Assembly (NCBI GenBank): GCA_002245135.1 | Contig: NGBS01000899.1 | Location: 1-64,000, forward strand | DNA: 64,000 nt | Source: Proteromonas lacertae | Lineage: Eukaryota | Direction of reading: 5' to 3' | In this document: one piece after another, positions 1-42,683 of the stretch | Numbering within the stretch: position 1 is the stretch's first letter | Layout: the number at the start of each line of letters is the position of its first letter | Notes under the pieces: model-generated | Database searches by the model: none | What the model saw: only the letters and a program-made list of their open reading frames with translations | Told to the model about the DNA's origin: nothing | Made by a program: the position numbers and the translations under genes

Positions 1-171
1 AAAAACTCAAAATTCTTTTCAATTCTAACCAATCAAATTAAAGTATTCTATTTCAAAAATATTTTCAAACCCCATAAACAATTTTAATATAGTATGAGAA
101 TATAATTCAGAATATTGAAAGATAAAAGTTAAATGTTCAATAAATGAACAAATAACTCGCAATTTGTAAAC

Positions 172-3100: not shown

Positions 3101-6100
3101 CATTTATTATAACTATGACATTCTACACTTCCACAATCTCCACTACATACTTCTACAGGTTTACAATTACTACAGTCAACTGGTTTGTGATTTTCACATC
3201 TCTCACCATAATAATCATCATTACATTTACATTGTCTATTACTATCACATGTTCCATGAATACAAGTTTCAACTTTACAATTTCGATTTAATTCTTTAGA
3301 TACTGAACCAATGTAGGTAAATACTTGGGAACTACTTTGCAAAGTATCTAATTTTTCTTTTGTATTTTGAACTAATTGTGCTTTATCATTAACATTAATT
3401 CTCTTAATGTTAATTTTAGCTTCATTTCCATCTTGTGTTTTATTTGTTGAACCCAATTTGACCATTACTTCCTTTGGCAAACACTGTTATTGTTACTTCA
3501 CCCATTGGTAATATACCTGTGTAATTAGCTTCACTTTTAAAACCATCTTGTAAATAATAATTATTACCATCAACTGTTGCCATAAATTCATATTCTATTT
3601 CTTCAGATGATTTTGATGAAGTCTTTTGTTTCCATCCAGCGGTTTTAATAGTTACAGAAGTACCAAAATCAACTGGATTAGTAGTAGGATTAACAAATTC
3701 AATATAACCCTTAAATGGAACATCACAATCTTCAGAATGAACAGTATGAGAGACTTCTTCACTATAATCTTTATTTAATGGAGATTTTACTTTCAAACTT
3801 AAATTCATAATCACCACTTGAAGAAAACATTCCTGGAGTTAATTCAATCTTTTTATCATTCTTTATATTGGCATTTGTTATTGCTTCAATTAATGTTGGA
3901 GTTTGTTTATCATCAGAACAAGACCATTCATATTTTAAGTCTCTTTTACCATCTCCTATTGATTTACTTCCATCTAATATTATATTATCATAACAGCCTA
4001 TTGAATTTCCACCTTCAATTATTGCTCTTGTTTCAATCACTACTCCATATTTTACATTTATACAACCTTTCACATGATTCTTTTCACTTTGTAATGAGCT
4101 TTCAATAAATTGTAAGGTATTATCATATACATCTCCTTCCACACACTCAGATGACTCACTTGGCAAAATTGTTGCATCATTAGATAAGGTAATCATCATC
4201 TTCTTACTATCATTTTCACTTAAGAAACATCTTGCATTTGAACCTAAATTAGTATTCTTTAATATTGAACTACATACATCTTCTTTGGTTGTTATACCTG
4301 ATTTGATTTCTTCTTCAAATTCTACTTCGATTGCAGAAGCAGATACAAATCTTGCAGTTTTTATTGACAAATCATTAAATACTTCTTGATGGAATTGATA
4401 TTCAAATTCTTTCTTATAATAATCAACATAATATGGATTAACACCTACTATTATCTTCACTAAAATTTCTTCACTTTGAATTGAACTAGGAATTGTTACT
4501 TTCGCAAAGAAATCACCTCTATCAGTATATACATAATTCAATTCACTAATTATTTCATTATTAACACTCACATTGTAATGAACTAAGGGATAAGATATTC
4601 CTCTTATTGGAATTAAACATTCTTCACCTACTTTACAATTTACTTCTTTGGGATAGATTGTGAATTTGTATGTTGGAACTTGTGCAGATGAATAAAATAA
4701 ATCATCACTTTTCATACTCAATGAAAAGGATTCTTCACTTATACTATCTCCACTTTTATCAAATGTAATAGCATAATCTTGTTTCATGTTGTATTGGTTA
4801 AATACTTTATTGTAATTGATATCACTTGTTGTAATTCTTGATGATAAGATTGGATTTATTGTTACATCTTTACTTGGTGTAACATTTAAACTTATATAAA
4901 CTTGAGCACTATTTACTGTATTATCTACTATTGAACCAATATCAAATGAGATATTCATTCCACTTCTCATTTCTGGGATTTTACTACTTCCATCTAATTC
5001 TATGTATTTACTGAATGAACTATTAGCTAATAAACCATCACTAGTAATAAGTGGCATATTTGGTTGAACAAATATTGGAATTCTTTCATTACCAACAATT
5101 TCAGATGATAAATAGAAATTATCTTTTAATATATTGTTTATTTTTTCAATATAATCACCATCAGCTTTATTAACATATGCATTTTTGTTAGTTTCAAAAA
5201 TTCCATTACCATATATAACAACACCATTTCCCATAGTCATTGTTACTCCACCACCAACAGCTTTCATTTGTTGACTTTCAACACCATCAACATATGCATA
5301 AGAATTATAAATTGAACCAGTACCTGATGAATACATAAAGTAGCCAAAATTACCTTGATTTGATACAGCAAAATTACCGCTTGTTAGTATAATCACTCCA
5401 CTTTTATCTAATTTAAATGAATTACTAGTACTTGCACCAGTTAATCCACCAAAATTAGTTCCTGATGGAAAAGCAGTTTTGATCTTCATTTGTACAAAAC
5501 AACTGGAAATGCTTGGAGCTTGCATATATCCTACAATACCTCCAAATTTTATATTGTTTATCATAGATAATTCAGTTCTTATGTTAAATAGATTATTCTC
5601 AATTGATGTAAATGAAGAACCATATGCATTGCTATTTTCAGTTAAACCTCGTGCAAATGAATCTACATTTCCATATAGTCCACCAACATAAATATTACTT
5701 GACTTAATGATTAAACTGTTCAAATCAACATAATTGTTGTATGTTTGTCCTTCATGTAAGCCAAATATATTACCAAAATAACTTTGAGAAGTACCATCTT
5801 CCACTATTACATTATCACCTGTAACGAATAAATTCTCTGATACAGATACAATATTGTTATTAGATTGAGGATCTAAATCATAGGTAGAATGATAATATCC
5901 ACTTATAAATCCAAAATATTTCCCAGAAATCATAGACACAGTTACTGTAACAGGACTACTTTCACCCTTTAATATAACACCAACACCACGTAATTTACTA
6001 CCAGCAGCTACTTCATTTGTTAATATACCAACATTATTATTGTTATTACAAGCTAGTTTTATGCTTGAAGCAATTTGTACTGTCACATCTACAAAATCAA

Positions 6101-6503
6101 CTTTAACACCTGGATCAATAATACCACATTGTGTGAAGATAATATCTTCAGGGTTTGTTAAAAGATGATCATCTACTTCTATGCGAAAAGCAACATTGTA
6201 TAACTTAAATCCTTCAACAATACCTCCATTAAATAGTCGTAAACCCAAAGAGTATGATTGAATTATAGTATCATCAACAGTGTATTTAAGTGTAATCAAA
6301 GTATTAGTACCATTACCAATAATACCAGTTATTCCATCAAGTGCAAACTGATTCGGATTAGTCATCTCAATCTGGATAGGTTTTAAAAGCCTAGCAATTC
6401 CATCTTTCACTTCAACTGAGTCAGTAAGACCATCAAGAGAAGCAGCTCCTGCGTTTGACAAGAGTAAGAGCAGAAAACAAGTAATGAATAAGATAGATTT
6501 CAT
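172..6503 (-). CDS. Polycystin-1-like/GPS surface receptor with tetraspanin insert, copy 1 (about 10 single-base frameshifts, probably sequence errors)
   Basis: ORF fragments 172-6551 are collinear with the intact 2115-aa ORF at 8067-14414. The ATG of signal peptide MKSILFITCFLLLLLSNAGA is at 6503. Indels versus copy 2 (near 410, 1005, 1260, 1316, 1642, 2025, 2150, 2839, 3452, 3796) are all +/-1 changes, nearly all in homopolymer runs. Confidence 0.85.
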
Positions 6504-6591
6504 TCTAGAATATTCTAAAAATGAATTATCGTTTTTTATATTTATTTGCATTATTGATTGAAAATATTGATATGTGTTTCTTTCAGATATA

Positions 6592-7586
6592 TATGTATAA
6601 TGCCATTTGGACCTCCATCCTTGATATTTACTGTTGTATTGATTTTATTAATAATCGAATCAATCTTTACTTTTATCAGTGTAAATTCTTTCAAGAAAAC
6701 TCCATTTATTTACTTATTTGTTTGTGACTTAATACTATTTGTATTATGTCTGGTATGTTTTATTTACAGTATATTAGTAACATTTGATAATAATGGAAGT
6801 ATTCATTCTTTATGGAAATCTTTGACGAAATCAGTAGGAACAAAAGAATTAATAATTTATATCGAAGATAATCTCGAATGTTGTGGTTATAAAAGTGTAG
6901 ATGATTATAATGTTCGAAATTGTTTTGATAATGATTATTTAGCTGTAGGAATTGATCCAATAAGTTGTTCTTCAAAATTATCTGATGCATTTAAGAAATA
7001 TAATTACATTTGGATAATCTATTTTATTGTCGGAATATTATGTTTATTAGAAAAGATGTCTTTAGAAATGTCTTACATTTGTTTCAATTTCAATAAAGTA
7101 TTAAATAATCAAGATAATACTGATTTTGAAAATGCTGAGATAAAAGAAGCTGGAAATAAAATCTTGAATTTATTCCGAATTCGAGTAACAAAGAATAAGA
7201 TTCAAAGAAAGAAAGAATATGTTGAATGGTTAAGACAAAGAAGAATGAGAACAACGATAACAATCTGTGTAAACAGTGTAGTATTCATTTACATCGTGTT
7301 TATGGTGTATATCAACTTATTATATGGAGTAAAATTTGCATCTCAACAAGCTAACAGTTGGATAATATCTTCTGCAATTTCAATGGCAATCGATGTATGT
7401 ATTCAACAACCAGCCTTGATTTTATTGAACTCTGTAGCTGCTTCAACTATGGGTGCGATAGTAAACTTCGCTTCATAAGTTTACAAATTGCGAGTTATTT
7501 GTTCATTTATTGAACATTTAACTTTTATCTTTCAATATTCTGAATTATATTCTCATACTATATTAAAATTGTTTGTTTTAAGGGTT
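6592..7586 (+). repeat. Inverted duplication of the receptor 3' end and 3' UTR; carries ORF 6600-7478 (292 aa from an in-frame ATG)
   Basis: Reverse complement of 7959-8953, with one mismatch seen near the end. Also matches ~76-1056 of copy 1. The protein is identical to the receptor C-terminus from MPFGPPS to VNFAS. Confidence 0.92.
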
Positions 7587-8066
7587 AGTTTTATTTTTAA
7601 CATTTCTATGTTATGAATCAAAATACACACTACTTTTAATCATACTTAATTATCAAAATTTATTTCAACTAGTTAAACAAGAAATACTAGTTGTACTATC
7701 AGACTTAGGTAAAATGTACTTTCAAAAAATATCTTAATTTTATACAATTAATTATCAATTGTCATAAATTTCTCTTTATAATCATTATAAATATTTTGAA
7801 TTATATCAAGCAATATTTTGATGAATAGCTCTTGTTTAAAAGATACTGAAAAACTTAGGTGTAAAAATTATAACAACTGAATCTTATAATTAAATAAGTA
7901 AGATCAACTGTACTAAGTATTATGACATGAATTTATATTGCTTAACTGTTGTTAAATAAACCCTTAAAAAAAACAATTTTAATATAGTATGAGAATATAA
8001 TTCAGAATATTGAAAGATAAAAGTTAAATGTTCAATAAATGAACAAATAACTCGCAATTTGTAAAC

Positions 8067-11000
8067 TTATGAAGCGAAGTTTACTATCGCACCCATAGTT
8101 GAAGCAGCTACAGAGTTCAATAAAATCAAGGCTGGTTGTTGAATACATACATCGATTGCCATTGAAATTGCAGAAGATATTATCCAACTGTTAGCTTGTT
8201 GAGATGCAAATTTTACTCCATATAATAAGTTGATATACACCATAAACACGATGTAAATGAATACTACACTGTTTACACAGATTGTTATCGTTGTTCTCAT
8301 TCTTCTTTGTCTTAACCATTCAACATATTCTTTCTTTCTTTGAATCTTATTCTTTGTTACTCGAATTCGGAATAAATTCAAGATTTTATTTCCAGCTTCT
8401 TTTATCTCAGCATTTTCAAAATCAGTATTATCTTGATTATTTAATACTTTATTGAAATTGAAACAAATGTAAGACATTTCTAAAGACATCTTTTCTAATA
8501 AACATAATATTCCGACAATAAAATAGATTATCCAAATGTAATTATATTTCTTAAATGCATCAGATAATTTTGAAGAACAACTTATTGGATCAATTCCTAC
8601 AGCTAAATAATCATTATCAAAACAATTTCGAACATTATAATCATCTACACTTTTATAACCACAACATTCGAGATTATCTTCGATATAAATTATTAATTCT
8701 TTTGTTCCTACTGATTTCGTCAAAGATTTCCATAAAGAATGAATACTTCCATTATTATCAAATGTTACTAATATACTGTAAATAAAACATACCAGACATA
8801 ATACAAATAGTATTAAGTCACAAACAAATAAGTAAATAAATGGAGTTTTCTTGAAAGAATTTACACTGATAAAAGTAAAGATTGATTCGATTATTAATAA
8901 AATCAATACAACAGTAAATATCAAGGATGGAGGTCCAAATGGCATTATACATAATACACAGATGTAGAATATTAAACTGAAGAAGAATAATACAAAACAT
9001 CCACCTAATAAACCTATCTTCATTCGAGTTAAGGTTGGATTACTTACATTATTATGTAATATATAATCTAATCTCTTCTTCAAGAAACTCAAATTATACC
9101 ATTTGCCTTTACCTTTTATTGTCTTTGATGTACAACCATTCGCATATTTATATAACCAAGGAATTATTAAAGTACAAGGTAACATACATAATGTAGAGAT
9201 TATTGAAGTTGAGATTAATTGAGCTACATTCTCAGCATCACTAGAGAAGAATAAGGCATTCACTGCGGTGGATGTCATTAATTGACATGTTAAACATAAG
9301 ATTCGTTGACTTCGAGTTATTACTACTATTCCATTTACTGGCTTTAATGTTGGAGATAACCAACTATGTTCAGCTTTTAAATCTAACCAGAATCGAACTA
9401 AGAAATTTACTTTCTCTTCTTCAATATTCTTCTTCAATGTATTTTCAGCTACTTTCTCATCCAATACACCTACATTCAAGAATTGATCAGCTTTCCTTTC
9501 TTTTATTATAGATTTTTCTTTATTATCTCGATATTTGGTATAACTCCAAGATAAAGCACATAACAATAATACACAACCTAAGATGATTGGAACAATCATA
9601 TTACTAGAATCATAATTTCCTAATAACTTCGCATCACTTATTGGATTTACTATATTCATTTTTGGAATGATTTTATTATTTCGAATTGTAAAATCACTTA
9701 AATGAATTGCACCACAGGTTACAATTGTCACACTGGAAGTTCTTTCGATATTATATACATAAACACCTTTACTACTCAATTTCTTCGTTTCAGGATCATA
9801 ATAGGTACATTCCACATCTTTTAATGCAACATCATTCGATACTCGTTGAGTAAAGTATATTGGATCATTTAAATTTTCAACTTCTTCATTTTTACCATCT
9901 TCTTTTATTATTGAAATTGTTAAAGTTCCACTCGTTATATTTTCATTTTCCATTTCTTTTATTGCATTATCTTTCCATTCTACTATCTCGATTGACGATT
10001 TATCTTCTATTTCGCCAGATAATAGTCGTTTATTTGTATTATAATTACTCAAATCAACAGAACCACTTGAAGTATTTATCACACCATCTTTATTCTTATT
10101 GCATTTTAATAATTTTATATCAAATATATCATTCTCCATTTTAATTTCTTCCTCTTGCTCATTTCCTTTTACATTCTTGGAATAACTCTTGGAGATTTCA
10201 TCTACTAAATTCTTTGCTTCACTTGTCACACTTTTATCTTCATCAACTAAGATTCTTCTTTTATTAAACATTTCTTCTTTCTTTTCAAATCGAACCATCG
10301 AGGATATACTCTTCAAATAGGATGATAAACTATCGATTCTTACTGATGATGATGATGATGATAAAGATTTTATTGATGAATTTACTAATTTTAATGATTT
10401 CTTCACTATTTCTTCATCTAACATTGATTCATTTTCTAATAAACTTTCAATCACAAATGATTTTTGTTCGTGAGAATTTGAACTTTCACTTGCTGTTTCA
10501 GTATAATTCATAAATTGATTGTTTAATTTTATTACATTTTCACTATCTGTTTCATTACTAAATTCACAATTTGAACCATAATAACCAGATAGACATTCAC
10601 ATTTTGTATAACAGTTCAAATCATATTCTTTACATTTAGTATCAGTCTTTTTACAGTCACCATGATCACTACATGCTTTACCATGTCGATTACCATCATT
10701 GTCAAGATATTCACCTGGACATAATTTTGATGGAGCTTCACAAGTTTTATAACAATCAACTATTTCAAACCATTCACCATCACATTTTTTACCATTCTCA
10801 CATTTTCTAGATCGAATCATTTTACCTTTAACTTCTAAACCATTGAAGTTTATACATTCAGCACTACATTCTGATTCTATCCATTTACTCCATTCACCTT
10901 TTACATTTCCTTCATTTGAACATTCTTTTAATGTTTTGGTGTATGTTTGAGGATTATATTCACATTCTTTTCCTCCATATTGAGGCATTGTTTCACATTT

Positions 11001-14000
11001 ATTATAACTATGACATTCTACACTTCCACAATCTCCACTACATACTTCTACAGGTTTACAATTACTACAGTCAACTGGTTTGTGATTTTCACATCTCTCA
11101 CCATAATAATCATCATTACATTTACATTGTCTATTACTATCACATGTTCCATGAATACAAGTTTCAACTTTACAATTTCGATTTAATTCTTTAGATACTG
11201 AACCAATGTAGGTAAATACTTGGGAACTACTTTGCAAAGTATCTAATTTTTCTTTTGTATTTTGAACTAATTGTGCTTTATCATTAACATTAATTCTCTT
11301 AATGTTAATTTTAGCTTCATTTCCATCTTGTGTTTTATTTGTTGAACCAATTTGACCATTACTTCCTTTGGCAAACACTGTTATTGTTACTTCACCCATT
11401 GGTAATATACCTGTGTAATTAGCTTCACTTTTAAAACCATCTTGTAAATAATAATTATTACCATCAACTGTTGCCATAAATTCATATTCTATTTCTTCAG
11501 ATGATTTTGATGAAGTCTTTTGTTTCCATCCAGCGGTTTTAATAGTTACAGAAGTACCAAAATCAACTGGATTAGTAGTAGGATTAACAAATTCAATATA
11601 ACCCTTAAATGGAACATCACAATCTTCAGAATGAACAGTATGAGAGACTTCTTCACTATAATCTTTATTTAATGGAGATTTTACTTTCAACTTAAATTCA
11701 TAATCACCACTTGAAGAAAACATTCCTGGAGTTAATTCAATCTTTTTATCATTCTTTATATTGGCATTTGTTATTGCTTCAATTAATGTTGGAGTTTGTT
11801 TATCATCAGAACAAGACCATTCATATTTTAAGTCTCTTTTACCATCTCCTATTGATTTACTTCCATCTAATATTATATTATCATAACAGCCTATTGAATT
11901 TCCACCTTCAATTATTGCTCTTGTTTCAATCACTACTCCATATTTTACATTTATACAACCTTTCACATGATTCTTTTCACTTTGTAATGAGCTTTCAATA
12001 AATTGTAAGGTATTATCATATACATCTCCTTCCACACACTCAGATGACTCACTTGGCAAAATTGTTGCATCATTAGATAAGGTAATCATCATCTTCTTAC
12101 TATCATTTTCACTTAAGAAACATCTTGCATTTGAACCTAAATTAGTATTCTTTAATATTGAACTACATACATCTTCTTTGGTTGTTATACCTGATTTGAT
12201 TTCTTCTTCAAATTCTACTTCGATTGCAGAAGCAGATACAAATCTTGCAGTTTTTATTGACAAATCATTAAATACTTCTTGATGGAATTGATATTCAAAT
12301 TCTTTCTTATAATAATCAACATAATATGGATTAACACCTACTATTATCTTCACTAAAATTTCTTCACTTTGAATTGAACTAGGAATTGTTACTTTCGCAA
12401 AGAAATCACCTCTATCAGTATATACATAATTCAATTCACTAATTATTTCATTATTAACACTCACATTGTAATGAACTAAGGGATAAGATATTCCTCTTAT
12501 TGGAATTAAACATTCTTCACCTACTTTACAATTTACTTCTTTGGGATAGATTGTGAATTTGTATGTTGGAACTTGTGCAGATGAATAAAATAAATCATCA
12601 CTTTTCATACTCAATGAAAAGGATTCTTCATTTATACTATCTCCACTTTTATCAAATGTAATAGCATAATCTTGTTTCATGTTGTATTGGTTAAATACTT
12701 TATTGTAATTGATATCACTTGTTGTAATTCTTGATGATAAGATTGGATTTATTGTTACATCTTTACTTGGTGTAACATTTAAACTTATATAAACTTGAGC
12801 ACTATTTACTGTATTATCTACTATTGAACCAATATCAAATGAGATATTCATTCCACTTCTCATTTCTGGGATTTTACTACTTCCATCTAATTCTATGTAT
12901 TTACTGAATGAACTATTAGCTAATAAACCATCACTAGTAATAAGTGGTATATTTGGTTGAACAAATATTGGAATTCTTTCATTACCAACAATTTCAGATG
13001 ATAAATAGAAATTATCTTTTAATGTATCAGTGATGCTTTGAATATCAGTTTTATCCTTATGTGTAAATTTATCATTTGTATCAATTCCGTTACCATAAGT
13101 AACAACATTACTATTAGCTTGTACAGATATTCCACTACCAACAGCTTTCATTTGTTGACTTTCAACACCATCAACATATGCATAAGAATCATAATAATAG
13201 CCAATACCTGATGTTGCTGTATGAAAATAAGCAACATTACCATTTGATGGTAAAGCAAAACTACCACTTGTTAGTATAATCACTGAAACGAAATGTAATT
13301 TAATCATACCAGAAGCACTACCCATCAATCCACCAAAATTAGTTCCTGATGGAAAAGCAGTTTTAATCTTCATTTGTATAAAACATTTGTAGAAAACAGC
13401 ACCATTAAATAATCCTGCAATACCTCCAAATTTTTCATCTGTTCCTTCAATTTTCAACTCATTTCTTAAATTGAATAAACTATTCTCAACATTTATTATA
13501 GAAGAAGTAACATCATCATTATAATTAGATAAACCAGAGGCTACAGCATCCACATTTCCATATAGTCCACCAACATAAGCACCACTAGTTTTGATGTAAA
13601 AATTGTCTAAATCAACATAATTATTATATGTCTTTCCTTTATGTAAACCAAATATATTACCAAAATAACTTTGAGAAGTACCATCTTCCACTATTACTTT
13701 ATCACCTGTAACGAATAAATTCTCTGATAAATCTGGATTAGTACAAATACCTTGTTGAATATTACAATCATATATACCACTTATAAATCCAAAATAATTT
13801 GTTAAACTCATTGAAACAGTTACTGTAACAGGACCATTGTCACCCCTGATAATTACACCAACACCACGTAATTTACTACCAGCAGCTAAGTAATTGGTTA
13901 ATAAACCAACACGACTATCACTGTGACTACATGTTAACTTTATGCTTGAAGAAATTTGCACTGTAACATCTACAAAATCAACTTTAACACCTGTATCAAC

Positions 14001-14381
14001 AATACCACATTCTGTAAAAACTATTGCAGTATTTTTAGTACTACGCTGATCATCTACTTCTACACGAAAAGCAACGTTGTATAACTTAAAACCATCAGGA
14101 ATAGCATTGAAAAGAGTCAAACTAAGATCATTAGGTGTTGGATCACCATCCTTCACTGTATACTTAAGAGTAATCAGAGTATTAGTACCATTACCAATAA
14201 TAGCACTGTATGAAGCAAGTTCGATCGGACTTTGAGTGGTCATCTCAATCTGGATAGGTTTTAAAAGCCTAGCAATTCCATCTTTCACTTCAACTGAGTC
14301 AGCAAGATCGGCAAGTGAAGCAGCTCCTGCGTTTGACAAGAGTAAGAGCAGAAAACAAGTAATGAATAAGATAGATTTCAT
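8067..14381 (-). CDS. Polycystin-1-like/GPS surface receptor with tetraspanin insert, copy 2 (intact, intronless, ~2104 aa)
   Basis: Signal peptide; GLUG-like GGLxG repeats; REJ-like ILDGSKSIGDG..LKYEWSC; EGF (CIHGTCD..CKCNDDYYGERC); TSP1 (WSKW..CSAEC..RSRKC); GPS (CTYYD..CGAIHLSDF); PKD1-type HSWLS..TRSQRILCL..NALFF and LYGVKF..WIISSAIS..IQQP; tetraspanin LECCGY. Confidence 0.85.
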   Translation of the reverse strand: MKSILFITCFLLLLLSNAGAASLADLADSVEVKDGIARLLKPIQIEMTTQSPIELASYSAIIGNGTNTLITLKYTVKDGDPTPNDLSLTLFNAIPDGFKLYNVAFRVEVDDQRSTKNTAIVFTECGIVDTGVKVDFVDVTVQISSSIKLTCSHSDSRVGLLTNYLAAGSKLRGVGVIIRGDNGPVTVTVSMSLTNYFGFISGIYDCNIQQGICTNPDLSENLFVTGDKVIVEDGTSQSYFGNIFGLHKGKTYNNYVDLDNFYIKTSGAYVGGLYGNVDAVASGLSNYNDDVTSSIINVENSLFNLRNELKIEGTDEKFGGIAGLFNGAVFYKCFIQMKIKTAFPSGTNFGGLMGSASGMIKLHFVSVIILTSGSFALPSNGNVAYFHTATSGIGYYYDSYAYVDGVESQQMKAVGSGISVQANSNVVTYGNGIDTNDKFTHKDKTDIQSITDTLKDNFYLSSEIVGNERIPIFVQPNIPLITSDGLLANSSFSKYIELDGSSKIPEMRSGMNISFDIGSIVDNTVNSAQVYISLNVTPSKDVTINPILSSRITTSDINYNKVFNQYNMKQDYAITFDKSGDSINEESFSLSMKSDDLFYSSAQVPTYKFTIYPKEVNCKVGEECLIPIRGISYPLVHYNVSVNNEIISELNYVYTDRGDFFAKVTIPSSIQSEEILVKIIVGVNPYYVDYYKKEFEYQFHQEVFNDLSIKTARFVSASAIEVEFEEEIKSGITTKEDVCSSILKNTNLGSNARCFLSENDSKKMMITLSNDATILPSESSECVEGDVYDNTLQFIESSLQSEKNHVKGCINVKYGVVIETRAIIEGGNSIGCYDNIILDGSKSIGDGKRDLKYEWSCSDDKQTPTLIEAITNANIKNDKKIELTPGMFSSSGDYEFKLKVKSPLNKDYSEEVSHTVHSEDCDVPFKGYIEFVNPTTNPVDFGTSVTIKTAGWKQKTSSKSSEEIEYEFMATVDGNNYYLQDGFKSEANYTGILPMGEVTITVFAKGSNGQIGSTNKTQDGNEAKINIKRINVNDKAQLVQNTKEKLDTLQSSSQVFTYIGSVSKELNRNCKVETCIHGTCDSNRQCKCNDDYYGERCENHKPVDCSNCKPVEVCSGDCGSVECHSYNKCETMPQYGGKECEYNPQTYTKTLKECSNEGNVKGEWSKWIESECSAECINFNGLEVKGKMIRSRKCENGKKCDGEWFEIVDCYKTCEAPSKLCPGEYLDNDGNRHGKACSDHGDCKKTDTKCKEYDLNCYTKCECLSGYYGSNCEFSNETDSENVIKLNNQFMNYTETASESSNSHEQKSFVIESLLENESMLDEEIVKKSLKLVNSSIKSLSSSSSSVRIDSLSSYLKSISSMVRFEKKEEMFNKRRILVDEDKSVTSEAKNLVDEISKSYSKNVKGNEQEEEIKMENDIFDIKLLKCNKNKDGVINTSSGSVDLSNYNTNKRLLSGEIEDKSSIEIVEWKDNAIKEMENENITSGTLTISIIKEDGKNEEVENLNDPIYFTQRVSNDVALKDVECTYYDPETKKLSSKGVYVYNIERTSSVTIVTCGAIHLSDFTIRNNKIIPKMNIVNPISDAKLLGNYDSSNMIVPIILGCVLLLCALSWSYTKYRDNKEKSIIKERKADQFLNVGVLDEKVAENTLKKNIEEEKVNFLVRFWLDLKAEHSWLSPTLKPVNGIVVITRSQRILCLTCQLMTSTAVNALFFSSDAENVAQLISTSIISTLCMLPCTLIIPWLYKYANGCTSKTIKGKGKWYNLSFLKKRLDYILHNNVSNPTLTRMKIGLLGGCFVLFFFSLIFYICVLCIMPFGPPSLIFTVVLILLIIESIFTFISVNSFKKTPFIYLFVCDLILFVLCLVCFIYSILVTFDNNGSIHSLWKSLTKSVGTKELIIYIEDNLECCGYKSVDDYNVRNCFDNDYLAVGIDPISCSSKLSDAFKKYNYIWIIYFIVGILCLLEKMSLEMSYICFNFNKVLNNQDNTDFENAEIKEAGNKILNLFRIRVTKNKIQRKKEYVEWLRQRRMRTTITICVNSVVFIYIVFMVYINLLYGVKFASQQANSWIISSAISMAIDVCIQQPALILLNSVAASTMGAIVNFAS

Positions 14382-14565
14382 TCTAGAATATTCGTTATTT
14401 TCGGTTATTCTCATCTCAATTTTTAATTAACCTTTTCATTAGAATAACGAGTGCATTAATTATAATTATGATGAAAGAATTATTTCTAGTAAGAATTATT
14501 TCCGAAGAACAGTATGTTTATAATGATTTATTTTCTATTTCATATAACTAAAATATCAATATATA

Positions 14566-24174: not shown

Positions 24175-24247
24175 CGCCCAAGAGGGGACTTGAACCCCCA
24201 ATCTCCCGCTCCGGAGGCGGACGCCTTATCCATTAGGCCACATGAGC
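24175..24247 (-). tRNA. tRNA-Arg (anticodon CCG)
   Basis: Reverse complement GCTCATGTGGCCTAATGGATAAGGCGTCCGCCT-CCG-GAGCGGGAGATTGGGGGTTCAAGTCCCCTCTTGGGCG folds as a cloverleaf with A and B boxes. Confidence 0.95.
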
Positions 24248-25291: not shown

Positions 25292-27397
25292 TTATTCTGC
25301 ATTTTCTTCATTTATTAGAATTTTGACATAATCACTCCTATTATAGTTTTCATAGAAATAATCATTATATTCTCGTGTAATACATTTCACTGGTAAAACA
25401 GCTCTTTTGCAAAATGTTGATTGATATTCTATTTCTATTAATGAACATTTATCACTAACATTATATTTTCGAACTACGGGATATTCATAATTGAAGATAT
25501 TATCTAGTTTCTTTTCAACTTTTGAATAGAATTTCAACAAAATAGCTGGATTTATATGAAAGATATAATCATATACTAAATAATCATCAATAACACAAGA
25601 ACATATACCATTCACACACAACTCATTGGTTACATTTATTATGTGATAATTTGGTATGGCAAACATTGGAGGAAAGTTTACAAATGTTGAGTTTATTCCA
25701 ATTATTGTATAACATTTTGTTTTTCTATTGATTATACATTCTGAACACATACAATTGACATTATTCTTTCTTGAAACTGGATGATTGGCAAATGAGATTA
25801 TAATATCACTCTTTCTACTACATAAATATAACAATTCTTTATATCTGTCAACAAATGAATCATATTCATTTTCAATGATATATTGGTAAGCACTAAATAT
25901 GGGAATAATTATATGATAATATGATTTAATCTCTATATAGCTTGATTTAAATAGCTTTCGGAAATAATAATAGATATAAGTTAATGTCAAGTTTCTAACA
26001 TATGCATATTTTCTTAATATCCATAACCACTGAGTAGCATATGAATCACCTATCACTAAAATTGATCTCTTTGGATTATAATTACTTGGATATGTTTGGC
26101 AACAATCACACACAATATCTCCAAAGTAATTAAATAAAACTTCTGGATTATTAATGTTTATTTTTGAATAATCAATAGGTTTATCAAAAGTGTGTAAATA
26201 TAATGGAATTACTCTATCAATATAACCATCTGGTTTAGATATTATTGTCGATATATATTCAGACATATTATTATCAGAAGAATCTAAAAATGTTGGATTA
26301 TAATTCAATAATTTATCATGATAATAGTCATAATTTATGTAACATATATAACTATTAAGAAACGGAATTAATACCAACAACATATTCATGAAAAGCATTT
26401 GGTATTCTGACATTCTCAGCTTTTGAATTCTTTTGTCATATATTTCATAAAACAAAATACTTAAAGTAAATATTATAATAATCTTTATATATTTATTATT
26501 TGTTGGCAATAATTCTATTAAAGGATAATGAATTAGATATATTAAATAAGAACATTTTCCTATATATTTAATTATTCTATTACTCAGTAATATATTCTTC
26601 ATTTCTTTATGACTAATAATCAACAAACAGATAATAATCATAAACAACAACATAATTTGATCTGTGATTACTTTATTAAACGTTAAGAAACTATTAACAA
26701 AATGGAAAAGAAATGGTGAAATAATAAATAGTATACACAACACTATTTCATTAAATGAGTTTTTAAACTTTGTTAATTTTAATAATCCACCACTATTTAA
26801 TTCAAACATACGATAAAACAAAGAATAATATACACTTATGTCATTATAAATAAACATAATTCTTAAACCATAAGCAAATGATATTATTATCATCACAATC
26901 ATCAAATATATTGACATTTTATTAACTATATACAATAAAAATGGATATATTAAGTAATATTGAAACTCTACTGATAGAGACCAATAATTCATTATTGAGC
27001 TTGGATGTAAATCACTAAAATAATCTTGTTTTATACTTATAAAATACTGATTTGATAAGAATAAAGAACTATAATAAATATCATAGAATATAACTGGATT
27101 TGTATTATTCTGGTGCATTTTATATATCAAATAAACATACAATACAACACAAGAACACGGCATTATCCGTTTCAATCGCTTGTTAATAAATCTAAAATAT
27201 GTTGCACTAAAGGATTCTTCTTTGCTCATTTCTAAAGATTGTGTAATAAAATATCCAGATATTAGAAAGAAAATATCAACTCCCATATAGCCATAATCAA
27301 AATATTTGAAATGAAGATGAAACATTAAGACTAATATTACAGCATATCCTCTTAATCCATCAATATGATCAACATAGTCGGTAGTTTTATTTTTCAT
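25292..27397 (-). CDS. OafA-like acyltransferase-3 plus SGNH domain O-acetyltransferase (intronless)
   Basis: IDGLRGYAV..FH, GYMGVDIFFLISGY, RLKRIMP, WSLSVEFQYY, GKCSYLIYLIHYP; C-terminal GDSYA and DYIFH (approximate DxxH). Confidence 0.9.
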   Translation of the reverse strand: MKNKTTDYVDHIDGLRGYAVILVLMFHLHFKYFDYGYMGVDIFFLISGYFITQSLEMSKEESFSATYFRFINKRLKRIMPCSCVVLYVYLIYKMHQNNTNPVIFYDIYYSSLFLSNQYFISIKQDYFSDLHPSSIMNYWSLSVEFQYYLIYPFLLYIVNKMSIYLMIVMIIISFAYGLRIMFIYNDISVYYSLFYRMFELNSGGLLKLTKFKNSFNEIVLCILFIISPFLFHFVNSFLTFNKVITDQIMLLFMIIICLLIISHKEMKNILLSNRIIKYIGKCSYLIYLIHYPLIELLPTNNKYIKIIIIFTLSILFYEIYDKRIQKLRMSEYQMLFMNMLLVLIPFLNSYICYINYDYYHDKLLNYNPTFLDSSDNNMSEYISTIISKPDGYIDRVIPLYLHTFDKPIDYSKININNPEVLFNYFGDIVCDCCQTYPSNYNPKRSILVIGDSYATQWLWILRKYAYVRNLTLTYIYYYFRKLFKSSYIEIKSYYHIIIPIFSAYQYIIENEYDSFVDRYKELLYLCSRKSDIIISFANHPVSRKNNVNCMCSECIINRKTKCYTIIGINSTFVNFPPMFAIPNYHIINVTNELCVNGICSCVIDDYLVYDYIFHINPAILLKFYSKVEKKLDNIFNYEYPVVRKYNVSDKCSLIEIEYQSTFCKRAVLPVKCITREYNDYFYENYNRSDYVKILINEENAE

Positions 27398-27531
27398 GAT
27401 GCATAGATGCTTCAAAAAACAAGAAATAAAAATTATGAAACGAATATAATTTTTGTACTAATTTCTTTTCTTTTAACCACAAATAACAATCACATTTATT
27501 AACTTTATTTAAATGAGATAAATATATACTA

Positions 27532-28799
27532 TTAACTATTATTATATACAAATTTTTCTTTTGAGCGTAAATTGAATTTATCTTCATAACATTCTAGAGA
27601 AATAACAGATGATTTAATGACTAACAAATCTTTTTCATTGGTGGAACATATTGAAGTATCATTTTCTTTCACTTCTTCTGGAACTAATGGAGATTGTAGA
27701 AACACTTTTATCAATTAAATAAACATAATTAAATATTGAAAAATGATATATTTTCTCTATATCCATCTTCTTCATACACTGATTCAAAGTCATTTATATT
27801 AAAAATATGCAAAAAAGTGCGAAATACATATTTATTATCTTCATAAACAATGAATCTAGGTAATATAATTGTTCTATTCAATATCTTTCCCATATAAGCT
27901 AAAAATGTAATTGCATCTACTGGATTCACTTCCTTTACATTTAGTGAATATTTATATCTTATATATTTTCGTGTTTTGGATGAATAATATTCATTATCAT
28001 CAATTTTCCATAATCCCAATTCTTTAAATCGATATTTTTTAGCTATTCCTCCTTCTATACAATTATTGTGAAATCCGATTGTTTTACAATTTGTTACATC
28101 ATCCACAAAGTGTTTAAAATATCGAAAATAAAAAAATCCAATAGCAAATGTCAATAGACTAAATACTCCATATTTTAAATTATTTATTCTTTTCGCTGAG
28201 ATAATTAAATTAGTTATTCCTTGATCCATAAAATCAAAATCTCTTTGCCCGATTTTAGTTATCTCTAAAACTCTCTCAAACAGCCTTATTGATGCTTTTG
28301 TTGGTTTTATATACATTAATCCACAATTTAATTCTGTATGATTTCCTTCTATAAAATCAGTAGCATATGTAATATCATTCTTTGGATCTATATGATTTAA
28401 TAAATTTAAAGGATTTTCAAAGAAATATAAATCAGAATCAAAACATAGTATAGTTAAATTTTGCCTTAGATATTCCAGTAATATTTTGAATCTGTCATTT
28501 ATCTTTTTAGTATATTGCTCTGTGTATTGAAACGTTGATGCTACATTGTCATTCATCTCAATAGGAGAGTATTCTACAGGAATTCCATATTTTTCATACA
28601 CCGCATATGAAGATGGATTCCAAACTACCATTTTAAAATTTGGAACATTATATTTCAGTATTACTTCCTTATAAAAGTTTCTAACAAAATCTATTACATT
28701 GTAATCACCTACAATCACTATTTTATCAGGAATTGGTACATTATAGCAATTAACATTTATCCTGATAAAAAATATAATAATAAAGATATGATAAGACAT
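27532..28799 (-). CDS. Nucleotide-diphospho-sugar transferase (GT77-like) with signal anchor; one non-canonical intron at 27706-27749
   Basis: FDSD (DxD)..NP, LNCGLMYIKPT, MDQ..N, HNNC..KKYRFKELGLW; last exon VFLQSPLVP..NNS*. Confidence 0.8.
27706..27749 (-). other. Putative U12-type intron, 44 nt, AT-AA termini
   Basis: ATATCATTTT...TATTTAATTGATAAAA. Removal joins YREN to VFLQSPLVP in frame, and no local GT-AG pair restores the frame. Confidence 0.65.
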
Positions 28800-35680: not shown

Positions 35681-35907
35681 TTTCTAGAATGAAATTCTAT
35701 ACAATAAGATTATGAATATTGGAAAATAAAGAGTATAGTATATTTATATGAAGAGAAAAAACTATAATTATACAATTAATGCAGAAAGCTAATTTGACAT
35801 GATTATACATCAAGTAAATTACCAACTAAACAAACAAAACTTTGCATTAGGTCAAGCAGAAGTGACTCTGAGCCACTTTTCTACCACTTTATTTTTTTGA
35901 TTTTTCT

Positions 35908-37675
35908 ATGGGAAAGAGGGGTAGAAGTCCAGATAGCGATGATGAAAAAAATCATAAACGACACCGTTCACACAGAGACTCATCTAGAAGAAGTCGTTCA
36001 AGATCACATTCTCATTCTCGAAGACACAGAAGTCGTTCACATTCCCATTCACATAATAGACGTAGTAGTAAATTGAATACACCTAAATCTGAAGCATCAG
36101 CTCCAGTTACACCAAGAAATGATTCTGTAAACTTAGTATTAGAGTCAAAAAGTGGTAAAAAGACTTACTTACCAGCACCATTAGTTTTAGATGATGAAGG
36201 TAATGAAGTCGATGTAAATGGGAATATAATCAAAAATAAGACTTTTAAATCAGTAGCAACATTAAAAATCAATCAAAAATCTGTAACGAAAATGACCAAT
36301 CCATATACACAGCCAATAAAAGATAAAGAAATAGCTCCAGCTGTAATTGACAAAAGAATCCATACAAAATCAAGAATTAGTCGTAAAGACAGAGCTCTTA
36401 AGTTCAGAGAAGAGGGAAGTTTCGTTAAAAAAGCAGAATCTATAAGAGCAAGAGAAGAACGTATAAGAATAGCAGAATTACAGAAACAAGTGGAGATGGA
36501 ACATGATGCTGAATTAGCCAATAATAATGATGCAGTGGATATAATTAGAAGTAATGATGATGATATACCAAGTATATAATATATATAATAATAATAATAT
36601 TTTTGAATTTTTATCTCATTTTTTTCTTCAATATTTTTATCTGTATAGATATGGAATGGTGGGATGGTGACTTCTTACCTGATGGTAAACGTGAAGATTT
36701 CAAACATGCAAATACCTTCGATAAAGATTCATACGAATATTCACAACTGTTAGCATCAAATTGTACATCAATAGAATGGGTACAACATCCAGCACAAGTT
36801 CAACCAGCTTTACCAGAGTCAAAACCCAAGCCAATACCATTAATATACACAAAGAAAGAGAGAAAGAAACTGAGAAGAAAAGAAAGAATGGAAAAACACA
36901 AGGAAGAACAGGATTTGATAAGAGTAGGGATAGTAGAAGCTCCAGAACCAAAATTAACACGTTCTAATATGATGCAATTATATAAAGATGAAGCAGTAGC
37001 AAATCCAACAATAATAGAACAGAAAATGCAAGAGCAAGTCGCCAAAAGATTAGCCAATCATCAGAAGAGAAATGAGGATAGGAAATTAACACCACAACAA
37101 AAGAAGATTAAAAAATTAAAGAAATTGATAGGTGATAAAACAGAACAACAATATATAGCAGTATTTAAGGTAGAAGATTTATCTAATAAACGAATTAGGT
37201 TTAAAGTGGATGTAAATGCCCAGCAGAATTATTTAACCGGTCAAATAATGTTATGTCCAAGTATAAGATGTAATATGGTATTAGTTGAAGGAACAAAAAA
37301 ATCAATCGATCGATATACAAAGTTAATGATAAGAAGGATTAATTGGAATTTGGAAGAAGATGAAATAGAAAAGATTGAAAGAAAGATGATAATAAAGAGG
37401 ATAATAAAATGGAAGAAGAAGAAGAAGAAGATGGAAATGAAATTGAAAAGAAAGAGAAAAAAATAGAGGAAAAAAAGGTTGAAATAACTAAAGAAGAAAA
37501 GTTAGAGAATCATTGTTATTTGGTTTGGAGAGGTATTGCTGGTAAACAGTCAATAAAAGATTTTGTAATTGACACATGTTCTAGTTATGCTTCTGGTAGA
37601 GAGAAATTAGAAATGAAAGGATTAGCTCAATATTGGGATATGGTTAAGAATTATACAGATGATACAATTGCTTAG
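35908..37675 (+). CDS. PRPF3: U4/U6 snRNP protein Prp3
   Basis: MEWWD, VQHP, YTKKERKKLRR, RFKVDVNAQQNYLTG, CYLVWRG, YWD; RS-rich N-terminus; one intron and one apparent 1-nt error near 37380. Confidence 0.93.
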
Positions 37676-37773
37676 TGATTTATTTATTATTTTTTTTCCA
37701 GTTTTTACTGTTGAATTATGTTTTTAATTCCCACAAATTTCAAATAGTTTTGAATTAATAAATAATTAACATT

Positions 37774-38177
37774 CTATATATCTTTAGGACCTTCACCAGG
37801 TACAAGCTAGAAATAGTAAGTAATAAATAGCAATACCATGCAAACTTGACTTCCATTAAGCAGAATACTCTTTTGTCTAACAACTTGCTTTCCAGTAGGA
37901 GTGTAATTTCTAAATATTATATTTTCATTTCATACATCTCAGTAACATCATCAAGCACCATATTTTTATCAATTAAGGCAACAATAATATCATAAATACT
38001 GTTATTAATAAAAAAGGATATTGACATAATCATCAAAACCTCTTAAAGTTCCTGTAATTTCTTTATCACCTTTCATTATGATCCATATTTTAGAACCAAT
38101 GCATTTATCAATTAATTCTAGACAATAGAAATAAAAGAGAATATACCTAATGGTAAAATAGGGTTTGATTCAGACAT
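37774..38177 (-). CDS. LSM5: U6 snRNA-associated Sm-like protein LSm5; absent from the ORF track
   Basis: Spliced [57 protein letters not shown]; four introns, the second of U12 type. Confidence 0.95.
37964..38021 (-). other. U12-type (minor) intron, 58 nt, AT-AA termini
   Basis: 5' site ATATCCTTT, branch site TGCCTTAAT, 3' end TGATAAAA. Removal restores DDYV-N-MVL. Confidence 0.85.
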
Positions 38178-38417
38178 AATTTAGTAAAATTGAAATTAGA
38201 ATTATCAAACTTCAACTCAAGCTTTTTGAGAAAAACACACCATCAATTGCTATATTGATATTATTATTCGTTTAAATGCATTGCTATAAACAGAGAGAAG
38301 CGGATTTTAGTTTTATAGAATGATGAAGAGCAGTACATTTAACAAAAACTCTTGTAATCAACCCCTAAGCAATATAAAATAGTCGGACATAATAATAACT
38401 CAAAAATTCAAGTATAT

Positions 38418-38768
38418 TTACATCTGACCAGTCTGGACATTTCTTACAATTGAAATAATAGCTAATTAAATATATTAAAATAAAATCTATACCAGATCCA
38501 ATAACTGCAATCAAAAACACTGCTAAAACAATAGGGCCTACTTGTGAATCTTTTTCTTTCTAATATATTAGTATAAAAATAGTATACTTTGGATGATGTA
38601 CTGACATTTCCTCTTTTTGTGATATTCTCGTTATATTTTGCTGCTTCTCTTCTTTGTTTCATGGGGAGATTAGACTATTAAAATGGAGTATAGCATAGAG
38701 GATTAAAAATATTTATATTGCAAATATAAATGCAAATAAGCTGATATATATACTGTACGACGTTCCAT
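38418..38768 (-). CDS. SERP1: RAMP4/SERP1 stress-associated ER protein
   Basis: KYNENITKRGNV..VGPIVLAVFLIAVIGSAIISIVR; three introns. Confidence 0.88.
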
Positions 38769-38814
38769 TGCCTTACTAGTAGATATAAACAAAAAATTAA
38801 GAAATGAAAATTCT

Positions 38815-38828
38815 TGTCAAGCTTGACA
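38815..38828. promoter_or_regulatory. Palindromic promoter element TGTCAAGCTTGACA
   Basis: Perfect 14-bp palindrome between divergent SERP1 and Kish; variants occur at 17486, 20387, 35851, 38217 and 59674. Confidence 0.55.
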
Positions 38829-38877
38829 TATATTGACCAAGCTTTTTACTAATTACATTTTTTCTTTTTAATTGAAA

Positions 38878-39118
38878 ATGGTATATCTAGTATTTTATTC
38901 AATAGGCTGTATTATTCAATTTTGGAAGTTTGATAGAATGCTTGTTGCTATTCATTTGTGCATGTACTTATGCGAAATTTAGAGCTCCACAGTTATTAGA
39001 TAGACATAAAACTGGATTTTCAGGTATATTTTGGAAAGCTGCAAGAATAGGTGAAAGAAAGAGCGAATATGTTGCTGCAATGCTAGTTATTGTTACTATT
39101 TATAAACTGTTTTATTAA
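38878..39118 (+). CDS. TMEM167: Protein Kish (TMEM167)
   Basis: ATG, 25-nt intron, then AVLFNFGSL..LLLFICACTY..GIFWKAARIGERKSEYVA. Confidence 0.93.
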
Positions 39119-39207
39119 ATGTATTTATTTATGTAGTATTTATTATGATTTTCAAATATAAGCATAACAAAAACAAAATTTATCAGTACATAATAATAAA
39201 TTGTGTT

Positions 39208-42200
39208 TTATAATTCCGACATATTTTCTTCTTGTTGTTTCAACTCTATTAACATTTCAGGATCAAAGAATTTAACAGCACTAACATCTTCAGCCAATCC
39301 TTTACGACGTCTAGTCTTAATCATAAATTCACGACATAAGTGTTGTACAGGTGCAGGTTCCATTTGATGTAATATAATAGATGTATCTAATGGATCACCT
39401 TCCACTAATTGCCAATGATCAAATGTCTATATATATTAATATAATATTATTATAAATACATGTTGACAAAAAGCTAAACCTTGAGTATGAACTCTTAAAT
39501 CAACTTCAAAACCAAATGATTCAATCACAGGTATATATGCATACAATACAAAGAAAGGAGTACCAGGCTTAGGTCTTTCCTATATACAATATAATAATAA
39601 TAATAATAATAATAATATATATATATACAGATGAAACTAGACCTCTTCTTAAAGCCAACACCTCTTGAACAGGTTTAACTAAATCAGCTGGACAAATAAT
39701 CTCAATATAATTAACAGGTTCCATTAATCGAGGAGATGCTAATAATACTGAACTATAAACTACACGTCTTGCAGTTGGTATTATTTGACCAGCACCTCTT
39801 TGTATATTGTCTGTTGAAATTATTGCATCAGTTAATTTGAATTTAACACCTCTGATTGGTTCATCACAAAGTGGTCCTTCTTTACAAGCCCAACGGAATC
39901 CTTGTATAATGTGATCTTTCACTGTATATAGTATATTCTTATTCACTTCATCGGAGAGAGTATCATCTAATAGTATATTTGGTGAATTATCAGTTGGACC
40001 AAATGCCCATATCGATCTTGATGCTAATAAATCCCAATTATATTTATCCTTCATATAATCACTTAATTGTTTCTTTGGCATATTTAAACTAATTATTTTA
40101 TTCTCAATATCTAAATCTAACTTCTCATCAATTGGTTCAGCAATCATTGTTAATTTATTAGCTTTATTGGGAGTAGTTGCAAAACATTTTAATGTAGAAA
40201 TATCTATTACCGTTTCACAGAATGACACTACAGGATCAGCAACTTTAACTTCTAAATCACCAAATAATACTCGTAAATCATGTAGTACACAATCTAATTG
40301 TAATTCTCCAGTTCCAAATATAACATGTTCACCTGATTCTTCCACCTTTTGTTTGATTAATGGATAACATTTACATACACATCTTAAACCATTCTCCATC
40401 TTTGGTACTTCGGATGGTTTTAGTGCTTCTACTGATACTTTGATTGAAGATAATGTTGTGAATGATAAAGTATTGAAGATTTCAACATCTTTCGTTTTAA
40501 TATCACATATTGTAGCTGTTGAAAAAATAGTATCACTTACTCCTTCGATTAATATCCAATTACCTGCTGATAAATGATCTACATCTATCTTGTATCTACC
40601 TTCAGCTATTGCTATTGATGTTATTTCTTTAGTTGTCATATCTTCTGGATCATCTAATGAATAACTATTAATATAATAAAATATATTAATAAAAACTTAA
40701 AAAAAAAGAAAAAGTAATTTCAATAATATAACAGTAAAGAAATCAAAAAATAAAGTAAATAAATAAAATAACATATAATAATACTCTTCTCCTAGAATAT
40801 TGACTTTTTCTGCTTGATGTATAGTTCCACTCATTATTCTACCAAATGCTAAGAAATCTTTACTATCTGGAGTTGGGTATAACTTAGTAATATGTATCAT
40901 TAAAGGACCATTAGCATCACATTTCCTCATCGATTCTGCTATTTCTGTTGATTGATTTCCTTTATATATTCTCAGTATTTTATCTTCTGCTGCTTGTACT
41001 GGTGATTTTGTATGTTGTAATAATGAATCTACTATACACGTTAAACCATTCACAAAATATTTTCTCATTATAAATCTTAATAGTGGTTTAACGTTTTTAT
41101 GAAGTTCACTTTTTTTGAATTTTATTCCTAATGTTTTAAGTGTACTACCTAAAGATTTTGAATCTTCACCTACTGCTTGAGTATATATTTTATATCTATA
41201 TAATAATATATAAATATATACATTGGCTCTAGACAAAATTGTACAAACGATCTATATCCTTTATCTTTAATTTCTTTAGCAGTAAATTTCCTTGTAGTAT
41301 TATCATAATAATAATTACCCCAAAGATATTTCACAAATGAATCTACATTCAATTGATTATTATGATATATTTCGCTATATTGTTGAGCATATGATAATAA
41401 TGAAAAACACCATCTATGTTGTGATGATGCAAATAATACATTACCTAAAATTGGATTTAATTTTACATGTCTTTTACTATTATCTCCTGTTGGAAATTGT
41501 GTAACTGTTATATTTACTTCTTCAATAATTTGATGAAGTTTGTGGTAGACATCTGCTGGTGGTAATTTTAATTCTAATATTAATCGATCCATTTTATTTA
41601 TTACTAATATTAATGATAAACCTTCACGTAATGCTTCATTTATATACTATATAATAATAATTATTATTATTTATATAATACTCTATTTGTAGTCATATTT
41701 ACACCTTCTACAGCATCTACCACTATAAATGCACAATCTGCTAGTCTAATAGCAGCTGTAATTTCACCTGAAAAATCAACATGACCTGGTGTATCAATGA
41801 TATTCAATAAATAACTTTTACCTCTGCTACTTTGTAATATTATGGAGACAGGAGTGCTACCAATACTAATGCCACGTTCTTGTTCATCTTTACGAGTATC
41901 AGTGTAACGAGTCTATTTTTGGAATATAAAATAATTTGATTCTATACATCAACATCATCACTCCATTGAACAACATGTGTACTTTCAATTAACATATCTA
42001 AAAATGTGGTTTTACCATGATGTATTGAACCCAATACTACTACATTACGCATTAGATCAGGTTTATCCATTAGTGATGTCAAAAATTCATTTGTATACTA
42101 TACATTATTATATAATTAAATGTAATTCATACTACAGTAGTTGGTATTTCCTTTTCAAGAACTGAAAACACTTTAGCCTTGATTGGATTAATTATTGGTA

Positions 42201-42551
42201 CAGTAATATCTTGCTCATCTTCTGGATTTACTTCAATTTCCACACCAGGATAAATCTATGCAAATAATGCATTAATTATACATCTTCAGCATCTGGATAA
42301 TATTGTTTATCTTCATGGAGCACAATTGCGGTTTGTTGATTTGAAACTACTTCCTGTTCATCCTCTTCTACAACATATTAATTTAAAAAATACCTTCCAT
42401 TTCATTGCCATTATTTTCTTCCTCTTCTTCTTCGCTTTCCTTCTATTACAAAAAATAAGTGTTTATAGGTTAATACTTCTGAATCATCTGAAGAACTCTC
42501 TAAGTTACCTCCAATGTAATTACCAAATTCATCATATTGATCCTCATCCAT
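39208..42551 (-). CDS. EFTUD2: U5 snRNP 116 kDa GTPase Snu114
   Basis: [72 protein letters not shown]. Confidence 0.96.
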
Positions 42552-42683
42552 CTTTAAAAATCAATATGAAAAATAAATTGATGAATGAATGGGATTTCTA
42601 ACTAAAAATATAGTCGTTTGGTAGAATTTATTTCTTAATCTATTGTTTTTGAAAAATCTGCCAATTGTTTGGGATTAATAACA

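Follow-up and report, generated by a model that had tools for sequence, protein, structure and literature searches.

A predicted AT-AA minor intron in a protist glycosyltransferase gene and the 3′ end it has in common with the LSM5 minor intron

How is a 44-nt segment removed from a conserved reading frame when it begins like a minor intron and ends in AA? This question is raised by a glycosyltransferase gene on the minus strand of the 64-kb stretch of DNA analysed here (the window), and it has a second part, namely whether AT-AA could be a regular class of minor intron in this lineage. The terminus itself is already catalogued. According to the accessible text of Larue and Roy (2023; PMC10639083), it is the commonest non-canonical minor terminus, with a share of 1.1% among animal and 3.0% among plant minor introns that are conserved, or of 4.5% and 10.4%, respectively, among those that start with AT. 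The accessible text of Sheth et al. (2006; PMC1557818) reports that AT-AN pairs splice productively, records AC/AA switches between human and mouse orthologues and gives RASGRP4 and MSH3 as examples of AT-AA U12 introns. These animal and plant introns resemble the one described here in their U12-motif AT donor, their short distance from branch site to acceptor and their AA end. They differ in their share of the minor introns, as AT-AA accounts for both of the minor introns detected in the window. No spacer motif common to animal and plant AT-AA introns is described in the accessible parts of these two sources.

A 44-nt interruption in a glycosyltransferase gene

The window is eukaryotic, with about 26% G+C and many short GT-AG introns. 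The interruption occupies positions 27706-27749 of the minus strand, opens with ATATCATTTT and closes with TTAATTGATAAAA, has only about 6% G+C and, if retained, truncates the protein at an in-frame TAA (27731-27729); position, ends and stop codon all agree with the preliminary description. The preceding exon 1 (27750-28799, minus strand) has 350 codons, begins with a hydrophobic N-terminus and matches the nucleotide-diphospho-sugar transferase family PF03407 (E 1.3e-17; 64.9 bits, above the gathering cut-off of 22). Exon 2 (27537-27705, minus strand), placed by HMM and homologue alignment, begins with the conserved motif FL-x-x-P-x-V-P. It is followed by a predicted ordinary GT-AG intron of 34 nt (27503-27536, minus strand), which at 256.8 bits scores above the other candidate (253.4 bits) and has putative boundaries, and then by a predicted exon 3 with the stop codon (27387-27502, minus strand), which gives a weak HMM match in this frame. 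The full protein, likely completed by this GT-AG intron, is predicted to have about 444 residues.

The excisions were scored with an HMM built from 146 distant homologues, 140 of which align at the intron site and 6 of which do not. The spliced protein reaches 255.2 bits against 226.6 bits for the unspliced one, a difference of 28.6 bits, and removal of exactly 27749-27706 ranks first among 1,716 in-frame excisions. FL stands two residues after a conserved E in 129/140 homologues, in the register that matches the removal of 44 nt, and 136/140 extend at least 60 residues past the site at which excision restores the motif. These results bear out the earlier reading that excision restores the frame. 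The 12 best excisions are all 44 nt long, and only the one at 27749-27706 has a U12 donor at its start; no GT-AG or GC-AG alternative is found among the top-ranked excisions listed. Because nine 44-nt slides score within 1.3 bits of each other, homology sets the length of the intron and hardly its register, and the register with its AT-AA ends therefore rests on the donor motif.

The gene had been called a lineage-type glycan gene at first, a label that is now weakened. The family is not lineage-restricted but widespread, with relatives under annelid names and with chlorophyte and annelid clusters. No confirmed relatives were found in the metagenome or viral contigs searched. Next to the glycosyltransferase lies an intronless acyltransferase-3 plus SGNH gene of the O-acyltransferase type (25292-27457, minus strand), the start of which is no more than a few dozen bases from the glycosyltransferase stop codon; the two possibly form a glycan-modifying pair.

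Splice signals and competing explanations

The first bases of the segment (27740-27749, minus strand) form a U12-like 5′ splice site in which A replaces C at +6. This is the one deviation of ATATCATTT, which matches RTATCCTT at 7/8 positions; the U12 donor consensus is given as [G/A]TATCCTT in the accessible text of a Physarum preprint (bioRxiv 10.1101/2020.10.12.336362). The predicted branch-site core TTTAAT (27714-27719, minus strand) is a degenerate match to the U12 branch consensus TTCCTT[AG]AC, of which TATTTAAT retains only the TTAA core, the CC being gone; the LSM5 intron described below has GCCTTAAT against the same consensus. Candidate branch adenosines are placed by their presumed spacing at -11 and -10 in both introns (here 27716 and 27715, minus strand). 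The optimum from branch to acceptor is 11-13 nt (accessible text of PMC3584512), and the spacer is A-rich and without a polypyrimidine tract. At an equal distance from the end, TTAA[CT] occurs by chance in 3/63 major introns, a heuristic GT-AG sample with a median length of 32 nt that is biased by its selection for GTA...TAG and low G+C. With the donor, the short predicted distance from branch to acceptor, the first rank of the excision and its 28.6 bits taken together, 27706-27749 is most likely a U12-type AT-AA intron, in phase 0. Rfam searches of the window gave one tRNA gene (24175-24247, minus strand) as the sole match and no U11, U12, U4atac or U6atac gene.

The donor is also reflected in related proteins, namely four distinct Logan relatives with 31-62% identity to exon 1 (P0001, P0002, P0282/P0012 and P0088). 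They run for another 8-17 residues past the intron codon before they stop, and every one of their tails opens with ISF, the translation of ATATCNTTY and thus an AT-type U12 donor signature. In the simplest reading, the tails would be the translated start of a U12 intron that begins with AT and sits at this position. A search for the exon-2 frames of these relatives, whose first residues would tell AA from AC, gave no candidate. The SFN tail of P0282 would fit an in-frame reading of the 3′ motif discussed below, yet is indistinguishable from chance.

Among the alternatives to a U12-type AT-AA intron, an assembly artefact survives best, although we consider it quite improbable. The true end would then be AG, with GG collapsed to G, or AC, with a C dropped, and the intron an ordinary or an AT-AG minor intron. 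G directly follows the AA, and a GG-to-G collapse would convert AT-AG into the observed end; single-base homopolymer errors, including GG-to-G and CC-to-C losses, are present in the assembly. In one copy of a repeated gene (about 76-4300), comparison with the intact twin shows 10 single-base indels in homopolymers and 2 substitutions over about 4.2 kb; the indels and a diverged middle region of this copy most likely reflect assembly error in the repeat. The gene in question has more than 2,100 codons, is present in direct and inverted copies (76-6515, 6588-7586 and 7970-14426) and, from a weak PKD-like match, looks like a surface protein. In unique genes, five apparent one-base frameshifts were seen within the roughly 36 kb of genic sequence that were inspected, all at homopolymers (about 19785 in a SHIPPO-repeat gene, 21600 in a kinesin, 32255 in an unnamed gene, 37385 in Prp3 and 45077 in a coiled-coil gene), and these too are probably assembly errors. 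A systematic, context-specific error could still have acted at the intron end. The posterior that the AA end of the 44-nt intron is an error is nevertheless only 0.1-3%, as calculated from the terminus frequencies in Table S1 of PMC10639083 with GG loss at 0.25-1.4% per site and single-C loss at an assumed 0.01-0.1%. In addition, the LSM5 end is inexplicable by a run-length error, with no G or C beside its A-run, and the flanking open frames of 1.05 kb and 2.2 kb are intact. The preliminary description had cited two independent cases against sequencing error. Its verdict stands in view of the low posterior; the argument is not as clean as presented, given the homopolymer indels in the assembly.

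An AG one base beyond the AA end would provide a competing acceptor, the use of which would result in a frameshift. It is conceivable, though very improbable, that a U12-derived intron is now cut by the major spliceosome, or mainly at this AG with a frameshifted and non-functional product. The donor and branch signals are degenerate, an AG is available, and U2-type AT-AC introns exist (accessible text of PMC1557818). However, none of the 63 heuristic major introns, selected as GTA...TAG, resembles the 44-nt intron, and copies that are 31% identical retain the ISF donor signature. With the AG in use, the protein would also stop after 7 further codons and exon 2 would be free of selection, whereas exon 2 is conserved.

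Least probable of all is that there is no intron and the gene stops at the TAA (27729), perhaps with a Blastocystis-like 3′-end signal and with the downstream motif as a relic. TGTTTATT does lie 3 nt past the stop, one mismatch from the Blastocystis polyadenylation motif (accessible text of PMC5608401), and all four Logan relatives likewise end soon after the intron codon. Yet the window shows no excess of TGTTTGTT (10 found, 6.9 expected) or of TGTTTATT (15 found, 14.6 expected), and the downstream motif, which contributes its 28.6 bits, is preserved in another frame. Among the distant homologues, an end no more than 30 residues from the site is seen in only 2/140, and the tails of the relatives vary in length and sequence beyond ISF, as intron read-through would.

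The LSM5 intron and the common 3′ end

Strict and relaxed scans of the window found no third minor intron of any terminus beside the glycosyltransferase intron and one other. The latter lies in a gene (37774-38177, minus strand) that we take, as the preliminary description does, to be LSM5 and that was identified by its likeness to 57 metagenome loci (L001-L057). The gene has three GT-AG introns of 26-30 nt and a predicted U12-type intron of 58 nt in phase 1 (37964-38021, minus strand), with AT-AA termini, a ATATCCTTT donor that matches RTATCCTT at 8/8 positions and a CCTTAAT branch core; a slide of its ends by two bases, to AT-AT, would leave the LSM5 mRNA unchanged. The equivalent exon junction has a U12-type donor in the 57 metagenome loci, and by these junction donors the predicted LSM5 intron is at an ancient U12 site. 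Resolved introns were obtained for 32/57 loci and represent 28 distinct introns, every one of them GT-AG and unlike the 13-base end described below (5 to 11 mismatches over 11 positions). The other 25 loci are without a resolved intron; they include five with AT donors, the 3′ ends of which were not reached (L010, L013, L015, L026 and L042), the donor being GT in most other loci. A at +6, as in the glycosyltransferase intron, occurs in 5/57 loci with a search pattern that permitted A. At three loci (L003, L009 and L056) the U12 site holds introns about 33 nt long that start from a GTATCATT donor and lack a clear U12 branch site; these are possibly degenerate or converted minor introns. Mouse Lsm5 is among the genes with altered splicing upon U11 loss (accessible text of PMC12956336). 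From this report and from the U12-type donors at the LSM5 junction, it is very likely that the organism has a minor spliceosome. LSM5 adjoins two further spliceosomal genes, Prp3 and Snu114 (35872-42560 for all three); the identity of Snu114 to each of the 34 homologues tested is 56-60%, and it sits on a long branch outside the animal-choanoflagellate group. Intron size and base composition prompt no more than a guess at an opalinatan stramenopile.

The suffix common to the two minor introns is exactly 13 nt long and consists of five bases of the branch core, the six-base spacer TGATAA and the terminal AA. The window contains two exact copies of this 13-mer and no more, one at 27706-27718 and one at 37964-37976, on the minus strand in either case. 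The paired pattern of donor and 13-mer put forward in the preliminary description is likewise found twice, and at least two occurrences are reached in 0/200 block-wise Markov shuffles; for the bare 13-mer the shuffle mean is 0.095 and 2/200 shuffles reach 2, both comparisons being post hoc. With one mismatch allowed the 13-mer is not enriched in the window (5 vs 3.14 expected), and one such match (38103-38115) is LSM5 coding sequence. Of 33 matches of the paired pattern in viral contigs, 27 fall within open reading frames of at least 100 codons and so represent background; the pattern alone is not diagnostic.

How surprising is the shared end? Seven of its 13 bases are expected, five from the branch core and two from the terminus, which leaves the spacer. 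Its six-base match has a probability of 0.7% by composition. In pairs of major introns from the same biased sample, the six bases before TAG are identical in 29/1,953 and a common suffix of at least 13 nt occurs in 4/1,953, and a match of the spacer by chance is put at about 0.7-1.5%. From the published AT-AA shares and two AT donors, it follows that finding AT-AA in both introns is a 0.2-1% event. The coincidence of the 13-mer is real, but it was chosen post hoc from a very large scan. A lineage-wide 3′ consensus is suggested by these two introns. The earlier proposal of AT-AA as a regular class with an extended 3′ consensus would draw on two out of two minor introns in the window, a sample of two, with the same 13 nt, seven of which are expected anyway.

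A common origin of both introns by copying was considered and rejected, as their middles are no closer to each other than shuffles (1,032/5,000 local and 1,602/5,000 global). Further sites that resemble a donor and have a branch-like motif were also set aside: 32100 is a gene start, 29932 comes after a stop and 15257 is coding. The remaining donor-like sites, judged from the list of open reading frames, fall on the non-coding strand, in coding frames or in a major intron.

Age of the intron and a possible shift of the acceptor

The ISF break is common to copies that are 31-62% identical, and the intron is therefore old within the lineage and not a recent insertion; with the most distant of these copies only 31% identical, any gain must be old as well. 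An I/V-S-F break is found in 0/140 distant homologues, most of which may come from either mRNA or genomic frames. The five intron-bearing copies cluster (SH-aLRT 99) in a quick tree that took in 30/145 other homologues and came with long-branch and composition warnings. A gain of the glycosyltransferase minor intron in the stem of the lineage is thus possible; loss elsewhere, or homologue sequences derived from mRNA, would give the same pattern.

In the mechanism proposed for the glycosyltransferase intron, U11 and then U6atac would recognise the ATATCATTT donor, and U12 would pair with the eroded branch core TTTAAT. The position of the 3′ cut would follow from how near the branch adenosine lies (10-11 nt) and would need neither AC nor AG. 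The cut would fall within the A-run and skip the AG one base on, where a fixed spacer could act as a ruler, and exon 1 would be joined to the G that follows the A-run. As A at the first intron base tolerates any last base, strong AT mutation pressure likely eroded the ancestral AC to AA, along with other C residues of the splice signals. For the six-base spacer, a fixed motif that serves as a ruler and a coincidence of about 1% are both conceivable. A broader scenario, which we regard as possible rather than probable, is that the minor spliceosome of this lineage changed its standard acceptor from AC to AA, reads a fused TTAAT-TGATAA-AA motif of fixed length as a ruler and ignores the adjacent AG, with the glycosyltransferase intron gained in the stem.

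Fused signals of this kind are familiar from major introns. In Trichomonas and Giardia the branch point and the 3′ splice site form one motif, a conserved block of 12-13 nt that runs to the intron end, in U2-type GT-AG introns of intron-poor genomes. The block described here is similar, but it belongs to U12-like introns in an intron-rich genome. Physarum polycephalum offers a precedent within the minor class, with a lineage-specific branch motif 9-12 nt from the acceptor, +6 donor variants and U12 gain (accessible text of bioRxiv 10.1101/2020.10.12.336362). In that genome U12 introns number more than 20,000, the branch motif is TTTGA and the U12 snRNA has co-evolved, whereas the window has two minor introns among more than 60 and a TTAAT core. 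Blastocystis ST1 is similar in its very short minor introns (median 39 nt) and its major introns of about 30 nt; its minor introns are strongly AT-starting, many are in phase 0 and they were possibly gained recently (accessible text of PMC5608401 and PMC10639083). It differs in that 77% of its minor introns are AT-AC, and AT-AA as a term is absent from the main text of PMC5608401, the logos of its figure 1 aside. The window further departs from Blastocystis in its G+C content of about 26%, in a TGTTTGTT motif that is not enriched and in the presence of a SHIPPO-repeat gene. Ciliates are reported to be without U12 introns (accessible text of PMC13685798).

As it stands, the glycosyltransferase intron is most likely one further AT-AA minor intron of a known class and an indication that this protist has kept a minor spliceosome. 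If the broader scenario is true, this would be the first genome found with AT-AA as the dominant minor class within the literature searched; no genome dominated by AT-AA minor introns is described there, in a body of sources that most subscription papers lie outside. A genome-wide occurrence would provide a natural system for how the U12 spliceosome picks a 3′ splice site without AC or AG. It would also bear on the choice between distance and a spacer-binding factor as the determinant of the cut, and on the capacity of AT mutation pressure to reshape splice signals. At the level of annotation, gene finders would truncate the glycosyltransferase at the intron, as is the case for the four public relatives, which break off at that codon.
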